DNA from: Escherichia coli
GTDB taxonomy: Bacteria; Pseudomonadota; Gammaproteobacteria; Enterobacterales; Enterobacteriaceae
Reading direction: 5' to 3' (one strand)
Assembly (NCBI RefSeq): GCF_003334255.1
Contig: NZ_QOWU01000038.1
Length of the DNA: 49,700 nt
Positions 1 through 7,455 of the stretch are shown here, in pieces. Each line of letters starts with the position of its first letter. Position 1 is the first letter of the stretch. Under the pieces are notes generated by a model, which was not told the origin of the DNA, did no database searches, and worked only from the letters and a program-made list of their open reading frames with translations. Both the position numbers and the translations under genes were made by a program.

Positions 1-2
1 AG

Positions 3-368
3 CTGATAGAAACAGAAGCCACTGGAGCACCTCAAAAACACCATCATACACTAAATCAGTAAGTTGGCAGCATCACCCTAGTTGCCAAACAATTAGTGCA
101 GGCCTGCCAACCTACAGAAGAATCATTAATGCCGATTGTGAGCCGCCTTGATGCAGAAAATCGTTGTCCACTGGAAGCATTAATTATTCGTCGATTATTA
201 ATTCAGGCGGCGAATTTTACCGAGAAGCAAACTGTTGAACCGGAGCCGCAACCGCAGCCAATGCCCGTTGACGATGGTGGGCCAGGCTGTCTGGGCATCA
301 TTAAAATTATTTTCTATATTTTTATCTTTGCTGGTTTGATAGGAAAAATACTCCATCTGTTCGGGTGA
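3..368 (+). pseudogene. djlB: 3' region of a DjlB-like J-protein paralog, with an in-frame TAA at 60-62; downstream frame 96-368 encodes a DjlC-like C-terminus with a hydrophobic tail
   Basis: Frame-3 translation 63-368 (..[64 protein letters not shown]) parallels the DjlC C-terminus encoded at 1738-3189 (..[55 protein letters not shown]). The same frame is open from nt 3 but hits TAA at 60-62; the track ORF starts at GTG 96. Confidence 0.5.
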
Positions 369-377
369 CAGTCGACG

Positions 378-932
378 TTAATGTGCGGGAAGCCCGGCAA
401 GTAATCTTTCCGCATTTTTGTAATGTTGTTTGGCGGCCAGTTTTAACCATTTTTGAGATTCATAATGGTTAACATTAATACCTGAGCCATTTCTGTAGAT
501 CAAACCTAAAGTATATTGAGCATGAGCATACCCTTGTTCAGCTGCTTCCTTATACCAGAGAATTGCTTTACGGGTGTCGGGTTTGACCCCCAGACCTTTG
601 AGGTAGATCCACCCCAGTTTACTTTGCGCGCGTGGATTTTCCTGTTCCGCTGATTGCTCATACCAGTATCTCGCCTGTGTATAATCCAGTGGTTTACCGT
701 CGCTACCATGAAGATAAAATTCTCCAAGGCGATATTGCGACGTTGAGTGACCATGAATCGCGGAAAGCTCCGTGGCTGCCGTGGTGAATGGAAGACTGCC
801 CGGTGAGCTTAAATAATCAAAGGCATAATTCACCATGGCTTTATCACGCAACGTCGTTTTCTTGGGTTGGCTAATACAGGTAATTGCTGCAACTATAAAA
901 ATTGCGAATATATACATTAATTTTTTATTCAT
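378..932 (-). CDS. ybeT: Sel1/TPR-like repeat protein with N-terminal signal peptide
   Basis: 184-aa ORF; hydrophobic N-terminus [19 protein letters not shown]; Sel1-type repeats ([32 protein letters not shown]); position between the two J-protein genes. Confidence 0.8.
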
Positions 933-1033
933 GTGTGAATGCTTCGATTTTCTTTTTATTTTGAAAGCGTCAAGTTTATACTCATCAATAATAAAAAAGT
1001 AGTCAGTTAATGCACTTAAGGGATTATTAACAA

Positions 1034-1741
1034 ATGAATAAGGAAGAACAATATCTTCTTTTTGCGCTTTCTGCGCCCATGGAAATACTTAATCAGGGTT
1101 GCAAACCCGCGCATGACTCGCCAAAAATGTATACTGGGATAAAAGAATTCGAGCTCTCATCATCCTGGGGAATAAATAATCGTGATGATTTAATTCAGAC
1201 TATTTATCAGATGACTGATGATGGTCATGCCAATGATTTAGCTGGCTTATATCTGACATGGCATCGCTCTTCCCCTGAAGAGTGGAAAGCATTAATTGCT
1301 GGTGGCTCGGAGAGAGGGTTGATTTATACCCAATTCGTTGCCCAAACCGCTATGTGCTGTGGGGAAGGGGGAATCAAAGCCTGGGATTATGTTCGAATGG
1401 GGTTTCTGTCACGGGTCGGTGTGCTCAACAAGTGGCTGACGGAAGAAGAGAGTTTATGGCTGCAATCGCGCGTCTATGTACGAGCTCACCATTACTATCA
1501 CAGCTGGATGCACTATTTTTCCGCCTATTCGTTAGGACGTCTCTACTGGCAATCTTCTCAGTGCGAAGACAACACTTCGCTACGCGAGGCGCTAACCCTG
1601 TACAAATACGATAGCGCCGGGAGTCGTATGTTCGAAGAGCTGGCAGCGGGAAGCGATCGTTTCTATGCCACGCTTCCCTGGCAGCCATTAACTGTCCAGT
1701 CTGAATGCCCGGTAACGCTTAAGGATGTGAGCGACCTATGA
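1034..1741 (+). CDS. ybeU: Conserved protein of unknown function (YbeU/YbeR family)
   Basis: 235-aa ORF; its stop TGA 1739-1741 overlaps the ATG of the next gene (ATGA). Confidence 0.8.
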
Positions 1742-3189
1742 AAACATGTTGGCAAATCCTCGAAATTGAAAGCACGACGCAAATAGACATTATCCGCCAG
1801 GCTTATCTTGCTCGCTTACCGTTGTGTCATCCCGAAACCGATCCGCAAGGGTTTAAAGCATTACGCCAGGCCTATGAAGAGGCCCTGCGACTGGCGGTAA
1901 ATCCTGTCGAGGAAGCAGATGATGAAGAAAAAGATGCTGCCGCTGAACATGAAATACTACGTGCATTCAGGACATTACTGGATTCAGAAAGTGATCGTTT
2001 TCAGCCTTCCGCCTGGCAGAAATTTATTCAGCAATTAAATACCTGGAACATGGAGGATGTCGATCAATTACGCTGGCCGCTGTGTGCAATCGCCATAGAA
2101 GCGCGATATCTTTCATTAAATTGTGCTTCTTTGCTGGCAGAGCGTTTGAACTGGCATTCATTTAATGACAGCGAAGGAATGGATGAGGAAGAAAGGGAGG
2201 CTTTTCTTGAGGCCATTCAGGCTGGTGATTGTTTCGATTTCCTTAGCCTTCTGGAATATCCCATTGCGTTGCAGAACCAGACTGTTGAGTATTACTTCGC
2301 GCTGGAACGTTGCTGCCGTTACCATCCTGACTATGTCACTGCGTTTTTGGCGATGGAAGGTCCGTGGTTAATTCCTGATGATGCAAAGTTACATCGCAAA
2401 CTGTTGCGCTGGTACAGCTCGGTGCAAACAGGTATGGCGGAACTCATTCCTGTCGCTCAACAGTGGCAAACGGAAGAACCAGAAAGCGAAGATGCCCGGT
2501 ATTACTTGTGTGCACAACGTTTGTACTGCGGCGAGGGGGAAAGCCTGCTTGCCGATCTCTGCGCGTACTGGGAAAGTTACCCATCTACACAAGCTGATAA
2601 TTTGTTGTTGCAGTGGAGCAAGCGTCATTGCCCGGATTATTTCGCGTTATTAGTGATGGTTATCGAAGCGCGGAGCATGGTAGATGCGCAAGGTCAACCG
2701 CTGAAATATGTTCCTGGTGAGAGCGCCCGGACGCGGCTGTTATGGGCGGAGATTTTACATAGCGGAAAATTATCGCCGTTAGGTCAATCGTTTATTGAGT
2801 CGTTATTCTTCAAGCGCAAAGCATGGGCGTGGTGGAAATCGAGAGTCGGTAGCGAGACAGAGCAAGATTCACCGTTCCTGGATTTGTATCGGGTAGCGGA
2901 ACAGGTAGTACTTGAAGCGTTTCCGAAACAAGAGATGCTGGCCCGTCTTAATACAAGGCTGGAAGGCGGAGATGCTCATCCATTAGAGGCCATTGTCACC
3001 CGGATGCTTTTGACGAAAGTGAAACTCGAGCCGGAGGATGAAGATGTCGATGAGCCAACACCTGAAAATCATGAAGAAAAAAATGATGAGGGTGAAAAAC
3101 CACAGAGCATTACCAGCATTATCAAAATCAGTTTAACGGTGCTGGTGATAGGTTATGCTCTCGGCAAAATCGCGATGTTGTTTAGCTGA
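1738..3189 (+). CDS. djlC: J-domain co-chaperone partner of HscC, with C-terminal hydrophobic tail
   Basis: 483-aa ORF; N-terminal J-domain-like region (..[33 protein letters not shown]..); acidic linker; C-terminal hydrophobic segment [17 protein letters not shown]. Confidence 0.85.
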
Positions 3190-3204
3190 CGATGTGTTTT
3201 TTGC

Positions 3205-3243
3205 GCCGATGCCGGATGCAGCGTTTACGCCGCATCCGGCAGC
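3205..3243. repeat. REP-type palindromic unit between convergent djlC and hscC
   Basis: gccgatgccggatgcagcgtttacgccgcatccggcagc; GCCGGATG..CATCCGGC palindrome. Confidence 0.6.
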
Positions 3244-3248
3244 CGTGT

Positions 3249-4919
3249 TTATGGGATCTCAATGGCTAAATAATCGCTCGCCCGCCGCCGAACTTCATCC
3301 ACGCGGGCCATATCGTTTGACTGCAACGCCGCATCAAAATCGGTGATCACCCGGCCGATCTCTTCTCGCTCGTCACCCAGCGCCCGCGCCCACAACTCTT
3401 CCAGTTTGGCTTTAAAGGTGCGATTGATGAGCATATCGCGCGGATAAATTTTCAATGCGGATAACCGCGTCCGACTCTCTTCAATCTGCTGCGCGCTCAA
3501 TGTTACCGGGCTGTGGTTAATCACTCTGGACTTAACGCTGCCGTCTTCCAGAAGCACGTCAACTTCAAGCAACCCGTTGATATCATAACTAAAGCGAATA
3601 TCAATCGACTGATAAGCCCCGGTTTTCTTCAACGGCACATCGAAGGATTCCACCAGAATGTTGTTTTTAACTTTGTGGTTTTCTCCCTGATAGACGTTAA
3701 CCGTAATTGAATCCTGTTCCGGGTGCATGGTTGAATAAGTTTCTACACGCGACACGGGCACAGTGGTGTTTCGTTCAATAATCGGCGAGAAAATGCCGGA
3801 AACGCCCTGGCGGTTAACTTCAACGCCCAACGAGTAAGGGCAAATATCAGTGAGGATTACCTCTTCAATATCTTCACTGCGTAAGCGGCAGGCGGCCTGG
3901 ATTGCTGCGCCCAGCGCGACAATGGTGCTCGGATCGTAACTTTGATACGGTAATTTGCCAAACAGACGCACGGCGATTCGCTGCACCAGCGGCATTTGTG
4001 ACGCGCCGCCAACCAGCACCAGACTGTCGATTTGACTCGGCTTCAGACGCGCATCGCGCAACGCCTGTTCAATCGGCACTCGCAAGCGATTGAGCAGCGG
4101 CAACCACAAATCTTCCAGTTCGTTCTCGTAAAATTCGCATTCCCGCGTTTCTTCCTGATACTGCCAGCGAATGTGCAATGGCGATTGATTGCTACATTTT
4201 GCCGCTTCCACACAGGCGTACAAGGCTGCCAGTTCACTCTCGTTAAGCGTGGTCCTGGCGACATCCGCGCGTTTTAAAACCTCATCGACCAGCATATGGG
4301 TAAAATCTTCGCCACCAAGAAAGTTGTCGCCAGCGGAGGCGTGAACTTCAATCACCGGCGTGGCGTACTCAAGCACCGTAACGTCAAACGTGCCGCCACC
4401 GAGATCAAACACCAGCGAACGGGTATTTTGTTGGGTATGCAGGCCATACGCCATCGCAGCTGCTGTGGGTTCATTAATTAAGCGTACCGCATTTAACCCG
4501 GCTAACTCCGCTGCTAAACGGGTATGCTTGCGTTGTTCATCGCTGAAATAAGCCGGAACGGAGATCACCACATCTTTAATCGGACGTTGCAGAAATTCTT
4601 CGGCATCTTCTTTTAATGAGCGTAATACCAAAGAGGACAGTTCTGGCGCGTTAAATGTGTCGCTGCCTAACCGCCAGTTGGTATTACTGCCCATTGCACG
4701 TTTAAATAACGCTGCCGTTTTATCCGGATGCGAAGTACGCCGTGATACAGCCGGTTTTCCGACTAAAATATGATTATTTTCATCCATGCTAATTATGGAT
4801 GGTGTTAAATATTCACCGAACTTATTTGGAATTAATTGCGCGGCACCGTCTTTCCAGACGGCAATTAAACTATTGGTAGTACCGAGATCGATACCAATGG
4901 CGAGTTCTGCATTATCTAT
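3249..4919 (-). CDS. hscC: Atypical Hsp70-family chaperone; conserved N-terminus is encoded upstream of the first ATG but no canonical in-frame start codon exists
   Basis: Track ORF 3249-4787 (512 aa) starts at an internal Met. The same frame continues upstream as QDINAIDNAELAIGIDLGTTNSLIAVWKDGAAQLIPNKFGEYLTPSIIS-MDENNH.., carrying the Hsp70 phosphate-1 motif IGIDLGTTNS. An in-frame TAA lies at 4958-4956; between it and 4787 there is no ATG, GTG or TTG, only ATA codons at 4928-4926 and 4919-4917. Confidence 0.8.
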   Translation of the reverse strand: MDNAELAIGIDLGTTNSLIAVWKDGAAQLIPNKFGEYLTPSIISMDENNHILVGKPAVSRRTSHPDKTAALFKRAMGSNTNWRLGSDTFNAPELSSLVLRSLKEDAEEFLQRPIKDVVISVPAYFSDEQRKHTRLAAELAGLNAVRLINEPTAAAMAYGLHTQQNTRSLVFDLGGGTFDVTVLEYATPVIEVHASAGDNFLGGEDFTHMLVDEVLKRADVARTTLNESELAALYACVEAAKCSNQSPLHIRWQYQEETRECEFYENELEDLWLPLLNRLRVPIEQALRDARLKPSQIDSLVLVGGASQMPLVQRIAVRLFGKLPYQSYDPSTIVALGAAIQAACRLRSEDIEEVILTDICPYSLGVEVNRQGVSGIFSPIIERNTTVPVSRVETYSTMHPEQDSITVNVYQGENHKVKNNILVESFDVPLKKTGAYQSIDIRFSYDINGLLEVDVLLEDGSVKSRVINHSPVTLSAQQIEESRTRLSALKIYPRDMLINRTFKAKLEELWARALGDEREEIGRVITDFDAALQSNDMARVDEVRRRASDYLAIEIP

Positions 4920-5002
4920 TGCATTTATATCTTGAAAGAAAAAGAGATAAACAGATTAAGACCACCCAGGTAACGCGTGGTGATCTTAATCAATGACGTG
5001 TG

Positions 5003-5938
5003 TTAAGCGTAAAATTTCAGACGATCAGCCAGTAAATCAACAAAGCCCTGACGATCAACATCGACCATTACGGTGGCATTCGGTTTATTGCCTGTCAGAT
5101 AATAATAATCAACAACCGTCATACCCTGGGTATATTTCCCCTGTGTTTCCACGCCAACCCAGCGCTCAACAGAGGTAAATAACTCCGGTTTCAACAGCCA
5201 GGCGATGGTGCATGGGTCATGCAGTGGTGCGCCGACAAAGCCCCATTTTTCGTCTTTATGATATTCGAGGAAGAAATCCAGCAGTTCGGCAACAATGGTT
5301 GAAACAGGGTTACCAATCGCGCGGAAACGCTCGGTGTCTTCAACGTGGATTTGTGCTTTATGAGTAACATCCAGACCGGCCATCACCACCGGGATCCCTG
5401 ACTGGAAGACAATTTCTGCCGCTTCCGGGTCAACGTAAATATTAAATTCAGCCGCAGGCGTCCAGTTACCCAGCCCCATAGCGCCACCCATAATCACGAT
5501 ACGGGCAATTTTGCTATGCAGTTCCGGATGGCTATTGAGCAGCAAGGCAACGTTAGTTTGCGGTCCGGTAGACACAATGGTGACAGGTTCCGCACTTTCA
5601 CGCAGCGTTTTCGCCATCAGCTCTACCGCCGTACAGTTTTGCGGTGCGAATGTCGGTTCCGGTAATGCCGGGCCGTCGAGACCGCTTTCGCCGTGCACAT
5701 TGTCCGCGATAATCAACTCACGCATTAACGGTTTTACCGCGCCGCCTGCTACCGGAATATCGGTGCGATTAAGCAAGGTCAGCATACGCAGAACATTGCG
5801 TAAGGTTTTTTCTGGTGTCTGGTTTCCGGCGGAAGACGTAATTGCTTTGACATCAAGCTCTGGTGAGGCGAGGGCGAGAACTATTGCGATAGCGTCGTCA
5901 TGACCTGGGTCGCAATCTAACAGAATTGGCAGTGCCAT
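5003..5938 (-). CDS. rihA: Pyrimidine-specific ribonucleoside hydrolase (IU-NH family)
   Basis: N-terminal [12 protein letters not shown] nucleoside-hydrolase motif; start refined to ATG 5938 (311 aa), preceded by AAGGAG; the track ORF adds 11 codons upstream. Confidence 0.9.
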
Positions 5939-6055
5939 TGTTGCTCCTTGTTGTGTGCTTCTTTGCGACAAGGGTAACGCCAGGATGTAACAGATACGAG
6001 GGGCGAAACGATAAAGCGTGAGATGGCGCGCAATTGGGTATGCGCGCCAGAGTGA

Positions 6056-6781
6056 TTAATGCAGGATTTTCGCGAGGAAGTCTTTTGCGCGGTCCGATTT
6101 CGGATCATCGAAGAAAGCGTCTTTCGGCGAGTCTTCGACAATTTTACCCTCGTCCATAAAGATCACCCGATTCGCCACTTTACGGGCAAAGCCCATTTCG
6201 TGGGTCACCACCATCATGGTCATTCCTTCGTTCGCCAGTTCCACCATCACGTCCAGTACTTCGTTGATCATCTCCGGATCCAGCGCCGATGTCGGTTCGT
6301 CAAACAGCATCGCAATAGGATCCATACACAACGCGCGAGCGATTGCCACACGCTGCTGCTGACCGCCGGAAAGCTGCGCCGGAAACTTATTGGCGTGAGC
6401 AGAAAGCCCGACACGCTCCAGCAGTTTCAGGGCTTTTTCACGAGCCGGCGCTTTATCGCGTTTAAGCACTTTCACCTGCGCCAGGGTCAGGTTTTCGATA
6501 ATCGACAGATGAGGGAACAGCTCGAAATGCTGGAATACCATCCCGACGCGGGAACGCAGCTTTGCCAGATCGGTTTTCTTGTCGTTAACCACGATACCAT
6601 CGACGGTGATTTCACCTTGCTGCACCGGTTCGAGGCCGTTGACGGTTTTAATCAGCGTTGATTTGCCGGAACCAGACGGGCCGCAAACCACCACCACTTC
6701 GCCTTTTTTCACTTCGGTTGAGCAGTCGGTCAGCACCTGAAAGTGACCATGCCATTTTGAAACATTTTTCAGGGTAATCAT
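6056..6781 (-). CDS. gltL: Glutamate/aspartate ABC transporter ATP-binding subunit
   Basis: Walker [13 protein letters not shown] signature LSGGQQQR, Walker [12 protein letters not shown]. Confidence 0.9.
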
Positions 6782-7455
6782 TATGCTGTCCTTCTTTTCA
6801 AGTAGCTGACCAACAACGACGCGCTAAGACTAATAACGAAATAAACAAATCCGGCAAACAGGATCATCTCAACCTGCGTACCATCACGCTCACCAATGGT
6901 TGAGGCGGTACGGAAGAAATCGGCCAGGGATAACACATACACCAGTGAGGTATCCTGGAACAGTACGATGCCCTGAGTGAGCAGCAGCGGCACCATCGCG
7001 CGGAACGCCTGCGGCAGAATAATCAGTTTCATCGACTGCCAGTGAGTCATTCCCAACGCCAGCGCGGCGCTCGATTGACCACGAGAAATACTTTGAATAC
7101 CAGCACGGATAATCTCTGAATAGTAGGCCGCTTCAAACATCGAAAACGCCACCATCGCCGAAATTAAACGGATATCATTTTTTGGCGATAATCCCAGCAC
7201 GTTTTGCAGAAAACCCGGCACGATCAGGTAAAACCACAGCAAAACCATAACTAAAGGAATCGAGCGGAATACGTTAACGTAGGCTTTGGCAAACCACGCC
7301 ACGGGCGCAAAGCTGGATAAACGCATCACCGCCAGCATCGTGCCCCACAAAATACCAATCACTACCGCCGTGACGGTGATTTTCAGGGTGATCACCAGCC
7401 CGTCGAGCAGATATGGCAGGGAAGGGACAATGGAACTCCAGTCAAACTCGTACAT
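6781..7455 (-). CDS. gltK: Glutamate/aspartate ABC transporter permease
   Basis: 224-aa polytopic membrane protein; stop overlaps gltL start (TAATG). Confidence 0.9.

Follow-up and report, generated by a model that had tools for sequence, protein, structure and literature searches.

A DUF1266 protein is conserved beside the HscC-DjlC Hsp70 system of Escherichia coli

The window analysed here is a stretch of 49,700 nucleotides of an Escherichia coli genome (contig NZ_QOWU01000038.1 of NCBI RefSeq assembly GCF_003334255.1). Its open reading frames (ORFs) and the comparison with complete E. coli genomes show that positions 1-6000 correspond to the chromosomal stretch ybeT-ybeU-djlC-hscC-rihA of this species. 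Positions 1-4919 are the ybeT-ybeU-djlC-hscC locus, with the gene order of strain K-12. This locus is the already known and annotated third Hsp70 system of E. coli, and HscC has been known as the third Hsp70 of this organism since 1998. In this study, we show that the conserved unit consists of three genes rather than two, namely a DUF1266 gene translationally coupled to a djl gene and a neighbouring gene for an HscC-type Hsp70. We consider it probable that the locus is a third Hsp70 system with a three-gene core, in which YbeU and DjlC are the targeting half for HscC.

The window opens with 77 nucleotides (1-77) which are 100% identical to the end of IS1A (L001 8001-8077); the rest of this insertion sequence (IS) lies outside the window. 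A 3' fragment of djlB follows on the plus strand (78-368). It comprises the last 96 codons and the stop codon, including the C-terminal membrane tail, and matches K-12 djlB, starting at nucleotide 1138 of the latter, with 99.5% identity. On the minus strand, ybeT (378-932) encodes a Sel1-repeat protein of 184 amino acids. It is separated from the divergent ybeU by an AT-rich intergenic region (933-1033), the presumed promoter and H-NS/SlyA control region, whose K-12 counterpart has a GC fraction of 0.39. The plus-strand gene ybeU (1034-1741) encodes an all-helical cytoplasmic DUF1266 protein of 235 amino acids and overlaps with djlC (1738-3189, plus strand) by an ATGA. DjlC, the HscC co-chaperone, has 483 amino acids and consists of an N-terminal J domain, a TPR-like helical region, an acidic linker and a tail anchor. 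Convergent with djlC and 59 nucleotides beyond it lies hscC (3249-4919, minus strand), 556 codons for the specialised Hsp70, with an ATA start codon at 4919-4917. Between the two stop codons, an inverted repeat resembling repetitive extragenic palindromic (REP) elements (3210-3241; arms of 15 nucleotides, 93% complementary, 2 nucleotides between them) forms a hairpin that is probably a bidirectional terminator. A scan of positions 1-5100 for consensus promoters and terminators performed no better than on shuffled sequence.

As compared to K-12, YbeU and DjlC are 100% identical, YbeT differs in one residue, and HscC is 99.8% identical with residue 1 as the sole difference. An earlier interpretation made from the letters of this DNA alone (the sequence-only reading) had described the ATGA coupling of ybeU and djlC, a hydrophobic C-terminal tail in DjlC, a Sel1 gene on the opposite strand and a convergent hscC, and all of these are present. 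It had further described a paralogous pair upstream, with a djlB tail at positions 3-368. The paralogy is real in K-12 (YbeU/YbeR 59%, DjlC/DjlB 49% and YbeT/YbeQ about 35% identity), but the pair is not intact in this genome: djlB carries an IS1, its fragment extends from 78 to 368 only, and ybeR and ybeQ lie outside the window.

A considerable part of the system has been described. DjlC alone stimulates the ATPase of the specialised Hsp70 HscC, and DjlB is assumed to act likewise (PMC8215388, PMC13254874). Conversely, HscC is the only Hsp70 whose ATPase the J-domain of DjlC switches on (PMC8215388, which credits the HscC biochemistry to Kluck 2002). This bears out the view of the sequence-only reading that a dedicated Hsp70 module is encoded here. 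DjlB and DjlC carry HPE instead of the HPD motif, and HPE is tolerated only in DjlB and DjlC with HscC (PMC13254874). Both are tail-anchored; the insertion of DjlC into the inner membrane has been shown, with Peschke 2018 cited, and the protein faces the cytoplasm (PMC8215388). The earlier statement that the tail-anchoring is not established is thereby out of date. Deletion of hscC, or of djlB together with djlC, causes sensitivity to Cd2+, and loss of hscC causes sensitivity to ultraviolet light (PMC8215388, PMC13254874). HscC, DjlB and DjlC are too scarce in growing K-12 to be detected by proteomics (PMC8215388), and clients of HscC are not identified in the reviews of 2021 and 2026 (PMC8215388, PMC13254874). 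Over-expression of SlyA raises ybeT 4.1-fold and also raises ybeU-djlC, and all of these genes are listed in the H-NS regulon (PMC5797941). Such H-NS/SlyA control of ybeT and ybeU-djlC is in keeping with the AT-rich intergenic regions between the divergent genes. In the literature we searched, descriptions of the system comprise the Hsp70 and its J-proteins and name neither YbeU nor YbeR, and DUF1266 turned up only in an unrelated context.

Concerning HscC itself, the NCBIfam models for DnaK and HscA score the protein at 377-385 bits against cut-offs of 620-822, as expected for a separate HscC subfamily. With its 556 codons, HscC is itself of the HscC type as used below, i.e. an Hsp70 of 550-580 residues with an actin-fold ATPase and a substrate-binding domain, outside the DnaK and HscA equivalog families.

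The distribution of the three genes was followed from the DUF1266 side. Searched with a profile, 1.84 billion representative proteins yielded 1392 DUF1266 relatives; this search went further than a word-indexed protein search, which reached Enterobacterales only. Scanning one genome per species with an alignment of 10 sequences yielded 76 loci in Escherichia, Klebsiella spallanzanii, Leminorella, Rahnella, Pragia, Limnobaculum, Erwinia, Pectobacterium, Brenneria, Yersinia nurmii, Gilliamella, Pseudomonas and Bowmanella. To count co-conservation, we used the 62 loci (12 genera) in which at least 5 kb of sequence follows the DUF1266 gene, and searched their ORFs with the K-12 proteins. A Djl homologue lies directly downstream of the DUF1266 gene in 61 of the 62, the lone exception being an ORF-calling artefact. 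An HscC-type Hsp70 is likewise present in 61 of the 62 loci, and it is convergent and within 300 nucleotides of the Djl stop codon in 56. Among 15 DUF1266-djl junctions inspected, 13 show the ATGA overlap, mostly with a GGAG about 10 nucleotides upstream. Independent metagenome and genome loci carry the same DUF1266-Djl-HscC triad, and the window has this very layout, with the ATGA overlap and an adjacent convergent hscC. The sequence-only reading had counted the YbeU family as part of the module and had named missing co-conservation with the hscC and djl genes as the finding that would overturn this; the counts uphold the membership.

Clustering of the neighbouring genes across genera for a fourth conserved gene revealed no other shared family. 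Since the triad is constant while no other neighbour family is shared, it is a self-contained three-gene module that occurs in differing genomic contexts. A second, co-directional order, HscC followed by a Djl-like gene and then DUF1266, occurs in three loci (L092 317-5253, L095 3098-7654, L096 3400-7645). The Djl-like TPR proteins of these rearranged loci are soluble, lack a membrane helix and have HPD (L092) or NPE (L095, L096) as J-motif. The DUF1266-Djl pair is duplicated beside a single HscC in Escherichia, in Salmonella and in the Vibrio-like genome of L091, and tandem pairs are also found in the metagenomic L010, whose contig ends before any HscC. In L091, the first Djl paralogue of the tandem (4164-6785) is apparently without a J-domain. 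In three loci (L008 5145-7203 and 13664-15155; L009 2508-4566 and 11027-12518; L010 2104-7566) the module adjoins a yjf-like cluster of PspA_IM30, DUF2170, DUF1190 and GSP_synth genes (plus DUF350 in L010), a neighbourhood which may reflect shared ancestry rather than shared function.

The J-protein is the second constant member. In DjlC, the HPE motif occupies residues 31-33. The match of DjlC to the Pfam DnaJ model is weak (E 0.036), 9 of 15 homologues match at E<=0.001, and HPE is found in 81 of 83 Djl ORFs. The middle region is TPR-like. The sole hydrophobic segment (residues 458-476 of 483; nucleotides 3109-3165) is C-terminal and qualifies DjlC as a tail-anchored protein. Outside Escherichia, Salmonella and Klebsiella, Djl proteins have 880-920 residues and two to three C-terminal membrane helices matching DUF805 (e.g. 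L040 10693-13383). DjlB and DjlC correspond to the first 310-390 residues of the long Djl plus a single tail helix. By this comparison, the E. coli Djl proteins are shortened forms of a Djl of about 900 amino acids.

YbeU matches Pfam DUF1266 (PF06889) with an E-value of 4.7e-45 over model positions 2-175 of 175. NCBIfam yielded no family for YbeU, YbeR, DjlB or DjlC, save for a weak match (E 0.005) of YbeU to the C-terminal half of PRK11380, a 'hypothetical protein' equivalog of 353 amino acids. This suggests that another enterobacterial protein with a DUF1266-like domain may stand behind the match. In the wider DUF1266 family, many members have signal peptides, and the domain is fused to TPR, Cu-amine-oxidase-N, SLH, LRR and a metallopeptidase; none of these fusions is to a J-domain or an Hsp70. 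Two public records are probably contaminated with E. coli: a 'Paenibacillus sp.' contig (L018) carrying ybeU at 100% identity, and the AlphaFold database entry A0A077ZGN2, a 'Trichuris trichiura DnaJ-like' protein 97% identical to YbeU.

The Sel1 proteins are distributed differently. YbeT has one N-terminal hydrophobic segment, a signal or an anchor (residues 6-20), and three Pfam Sel1 repeats (E 1e-11 to 3e-5). Sel1 genes occur in only three of the 62 loci, all from Escherichia. Salmonella has a YbeQ homologue at 49.5% identity and no ybeT; YbeT was confined to Escherichia, and YbeQ to Escherichia and Salmonella. The Sel1 proteins were therefore rejected as core members on distribution, and the Sel1 partner that the sequence-only reading had included in the module is not part of its core. 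On comparative grounds, these proteins are lineage-specific additions.

Two lesions set the genome studied here apart. In the djlB frame as read from base 3, codon 20 is a stop codon, and homology to djlB begins only at base 78, corresponding to about codon 380 of 475. Since bases 1-77 are the end of IS1A, djlB is interrupted by IS1 in this genome. None of the 5426 complete E. coli genomes has the intact IS1-djlB junction, and the IS1 origin of the first 77 bases explains a median of 10 matching places per genome. The second lesion concerns hscC, which begins with ATA in place of ATG; initiation at the following in-frame start, Met45 at 4787, would yield a protein without the N-terminal GIDLGTT phosphate-binding motif. 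A 60-mer containing the ATA start occurs in only three of the 4404 E. coli genomes having the segment (G1/2, G6/7 and G8). In G1/2, the ATA-allele genome examined, an IS1-bounded deletion lies in the cluster, and the NCBI Prokaryotic Genome Annotation Pipeline (PGAP) still annotates a full-length HscC. In E. coli, AUA supports initiation at about 1% or less of the efficiency of AUG, and because it initiates so much less efficiently, HscC output is probably low in this strain. Together, the cut in djlB and the ATA start would weaken the system in this genome.

The locus also varies within the species. The ybeU-djlC-hscC segment is present at a coverage of at least 80% in 4369 of the 5426 complete genomes, and about 1000 are without a match. 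In CFT073, the one no-match genome examined, ybeL abuts rihA without any of the seven genes ybeQ to hscC between them (L006 10-1472). IS events in strains LR-33, H32, G1/2, ES9 and PM4 (L001, L003, L004, L005 and hit H35) reveal repeated targeting of the cluster: IS1 in ybeR, IS1 between hscC and rihA, IS1-bounded deletions from djlB to ybeU and from ybeR to hscC, and IS5 in hscC. The accessory-like distribution that the sequence-only reading had called informative is thus found in E. coli, with the module absent from about 1000 of 5426 complete genomes, and the system is clearly dispensable.

These data raise the question whether the locus in this genome is merely a decaying remnant, with the djlB pair broken by IS1 and HscC barely translated from ATA. 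The cut in djlB, the lack of an alternative in-frame start before Met45, the independent IS1 and IS5 insertions and deletions in other strains, the absence of a module match from about 18% of E. coli genomes and of the whole cluster from CFT073, and the low abundance of HscC, DjlB and DjlC in K-12 (PMC8215388) all speak for decay. The hscC frame is nevertheless open, and apart from these lesions ybeT, ybeU, djlC and hscC have intact frames that hardly differ from those of K-12; ATA is a permitted, albeit weak, bacterial initiator, and PGAP calls a full-length HscC from the same allele. We regard decay as a serious possibility that falls somewhat short of an even chance. It would bear on this strain and not on the nature of the module.

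In Escherichia, Salmonella and Klebsiella spallanzanii, the module is found at one and the same chromosomal position, next to housekeeping genes. From this shared position in Salmonella and K. spallanzanii, we infer that the module is ancestral and has been lost by some E. coli lineages. Among plasmid sequences, tblastn with YbeU recovered four Erwinia persicina plasmids of 130-165 kb, along with mis-assigned chromosomal records of E. coli. Among phages, the same search yielded no genuine copy and only two very small fragments lacking annotation. Mobility is therefore not typical of the module. On E. persicina p_Cp2, the module (L093 8974-12337) resides on a 138-kb non-mobilizable plasmid; there djl is annotated as four fragments (a J-domain protein, two hypothetical proteins and a DUF805 protein), and the gene table is without hscC.

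Alternatively, the cluster might serve in defence against phages or in another conflict, with an Hsp70 motor and a membrane J-protein acting on infection; the sequence-only reading had offered phage defence as a speculation. Such a role would agree with the patchy distribution across bacteria, with the presence or absence of the whole cluster as a unit in E. coli and with its silencing by H-NS (PMC5797941). In a transposon-directed insertion site sequencing (TraDIS) screen, ybeT insertions were enriched after phage challenge, but a ybeT knockout behaved like the wild type and did not reproduce the hit. PADLOC, run on all seven cluster proteins, gave no match for YbeU, YbeR, DjlC, DjlB or HscC and, for YbeT and YbeQ, only sub-threshold, noise-level PtuA matches with no qualifying stretch. 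Nor did the cluster reveal an effector domain of the nuclease, protease or toxin type, and the conserved flanks contain no defence genes according to the neighbour clustering across genera. True phage copies are lacking, genuine plasmid copies are confined to the E. persicina plasmids, and the fixed site beside housekeeping genes points in the same direction. The proposed phage-defence role is hence unsupported, and we judge it highly improbable.

What, then, might the DUF1266 protein do? We propose that YbeU is a stoichiometric partner of DjlC. For 19 loci, YbeU and Djl sequences from the same locus were paired and joined by a linker for a fusion alignment. The E. coli YbeU-linker-DjlC fusion of 705 residues was modelled by AlphaFold2 (AF2) with a predicted TM-score (pTM) of 0.76 and a mean predicted local distance difference test score (pLDDT) of 82.9. 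Such a pTM would seem hard to reach without a confident relative placement of the YbeU and DjlC halves. Residues 21-40 of YbeU rise from a pLDDT of 41/60 in the solo model to 80/85 in the fusion. The TPR-like region of DjlC and the occurrence of DUF1266 and TPR repeats in one polypeptide in other bacteria also count for a pairing of YbeU with DjlC.

In the scheme we favour, DjlC at the inner membrane activates HscC via its HPE J-domain, which is the published part. YbeU would be made in fixed proportion with DjlC and would bind its TPR-like region, and the pair would form the targeting half of the machine. The J-domain would then load HscC either onto YbeU itself, as a dedicated client like IscU for HscB/HscA, or onto a membrane client selected by YbeU. 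YbeR and DjlB would represent a second adaptor pair with a second specificity, sharing the same HscC. In more general terms, we lean cautiously towards YbeU-type DUF1266 proteins as obligate third subunits of HscC-type machines, seated on the TPR-like arm of the J-protein and serving as client or specificity factor.

A different consequence of tight binding would be inhibition. YbeU might be an anti-co-chaperone, which like CbpM would mask the J-domain or client site of DjlC and keep HscC off until a signal arrives. A precedent is CbpM, a small protein encoded in the operon of the J-protein CbpA, which it blocks specifically (PMC8215388), and the translational coupling and the confident fused model fit any tight binder, an inhibitor included. 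Against this, the gene order is unlike that of cbpA-cbpM. DUF1266 also has many conserved polar and aromatic residues, with H65, D118, R121, R127, E139, Y161 and R169 among the conserved positions, and stands by itself in numerous proteins that have nothing to do with chaperones; these features point to an independent activity and away from masking. We therefore consider an inhibitory YbeU unlikely.

Several points weigh against YbeU as an integral partner of DjlC and HscC. Many DUF1266 members are secreted or fused to unrelated domains, so that the domain is not intrinsically part of a chaperone. The loci were collected starting from DUF1266, and the survey thus runs from DUF1266 to HscC only. 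The Leminorella locus has DUF1266 and Djl and no HscC within 7 kb. Our literature search found neither YbeU nor YbeR linked to DjlC or HscC, experimentally or by mention. The docking of YbeU on DjlC is deduced from the pTM and pLDDT values. The fusion and the solo YbeU runs used different alignments, and the rise in pLDDT is not a clean control.

Comparison with known systems helps to place the proposed partnership of YbeU with DjlC and HscC. The HscC-DjlC/DjlB pair (Hsc62-Hsc56) is this very system, from which the genome studied here differs by the ATA start of hscC and the IS1 in djlB. An analogy to the three-gene core is provided by HscA-HscB-IscU, likewise a specialised Hsp70 that requires no exchange factor, with a dedicated class C J-protein and a co-encoded third protein. 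In the Isc system, the J-protein binds the third protein and passes it to the Hsp70. DUF1266, however, is unrelated to IscU, the Djl proteins are membrane-anchored and TPR-like whereas HscB is soluble, and a client role of YbeU is only proposed. CbpA-CbpM resembles the ybeU-djlC operon in combining a J-protein with a small specific binding partner. There, CbpM is encoded downstream and inhibits CbpA, which works with DnaK, whereas YbeU is encoded upstream of djlC and has a different fold. The J-plus-TPR co-chaperones DNAJC3/p58IPK and DNAJC7 and the TPR receptor Tom70 are similar in fold only (7-12% sequence identity); in contrast to them, DjlC has an N-terminal J-domain with HPE and a C-terminal tail anchor, and shows no sign of EEVD binding. 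DjlA, finally, is another inner-membrane-anchored class C J-protein of E. coli, but it is N-terminally anchored, has a canonical HPD, works with DnaK and has no DUF1266 partner (PMC8215388).

Even though the HscC-DjlC partnership, the HPE J-domain and the tail anchor of DjlC had been published, ybeU as the constant third partner is new. YbeU is thereby a concrete candidate for the missing client or adaptor of HscC, and an orphan Pfam family gains a working context. If YbeU-type proteins are indeed obligate third subunits, HscC would belong to a system of three components much like HscA-HscB-IscU, and the ligand of the conserved DUF1266 pocket would reveal the purpose of HscC.

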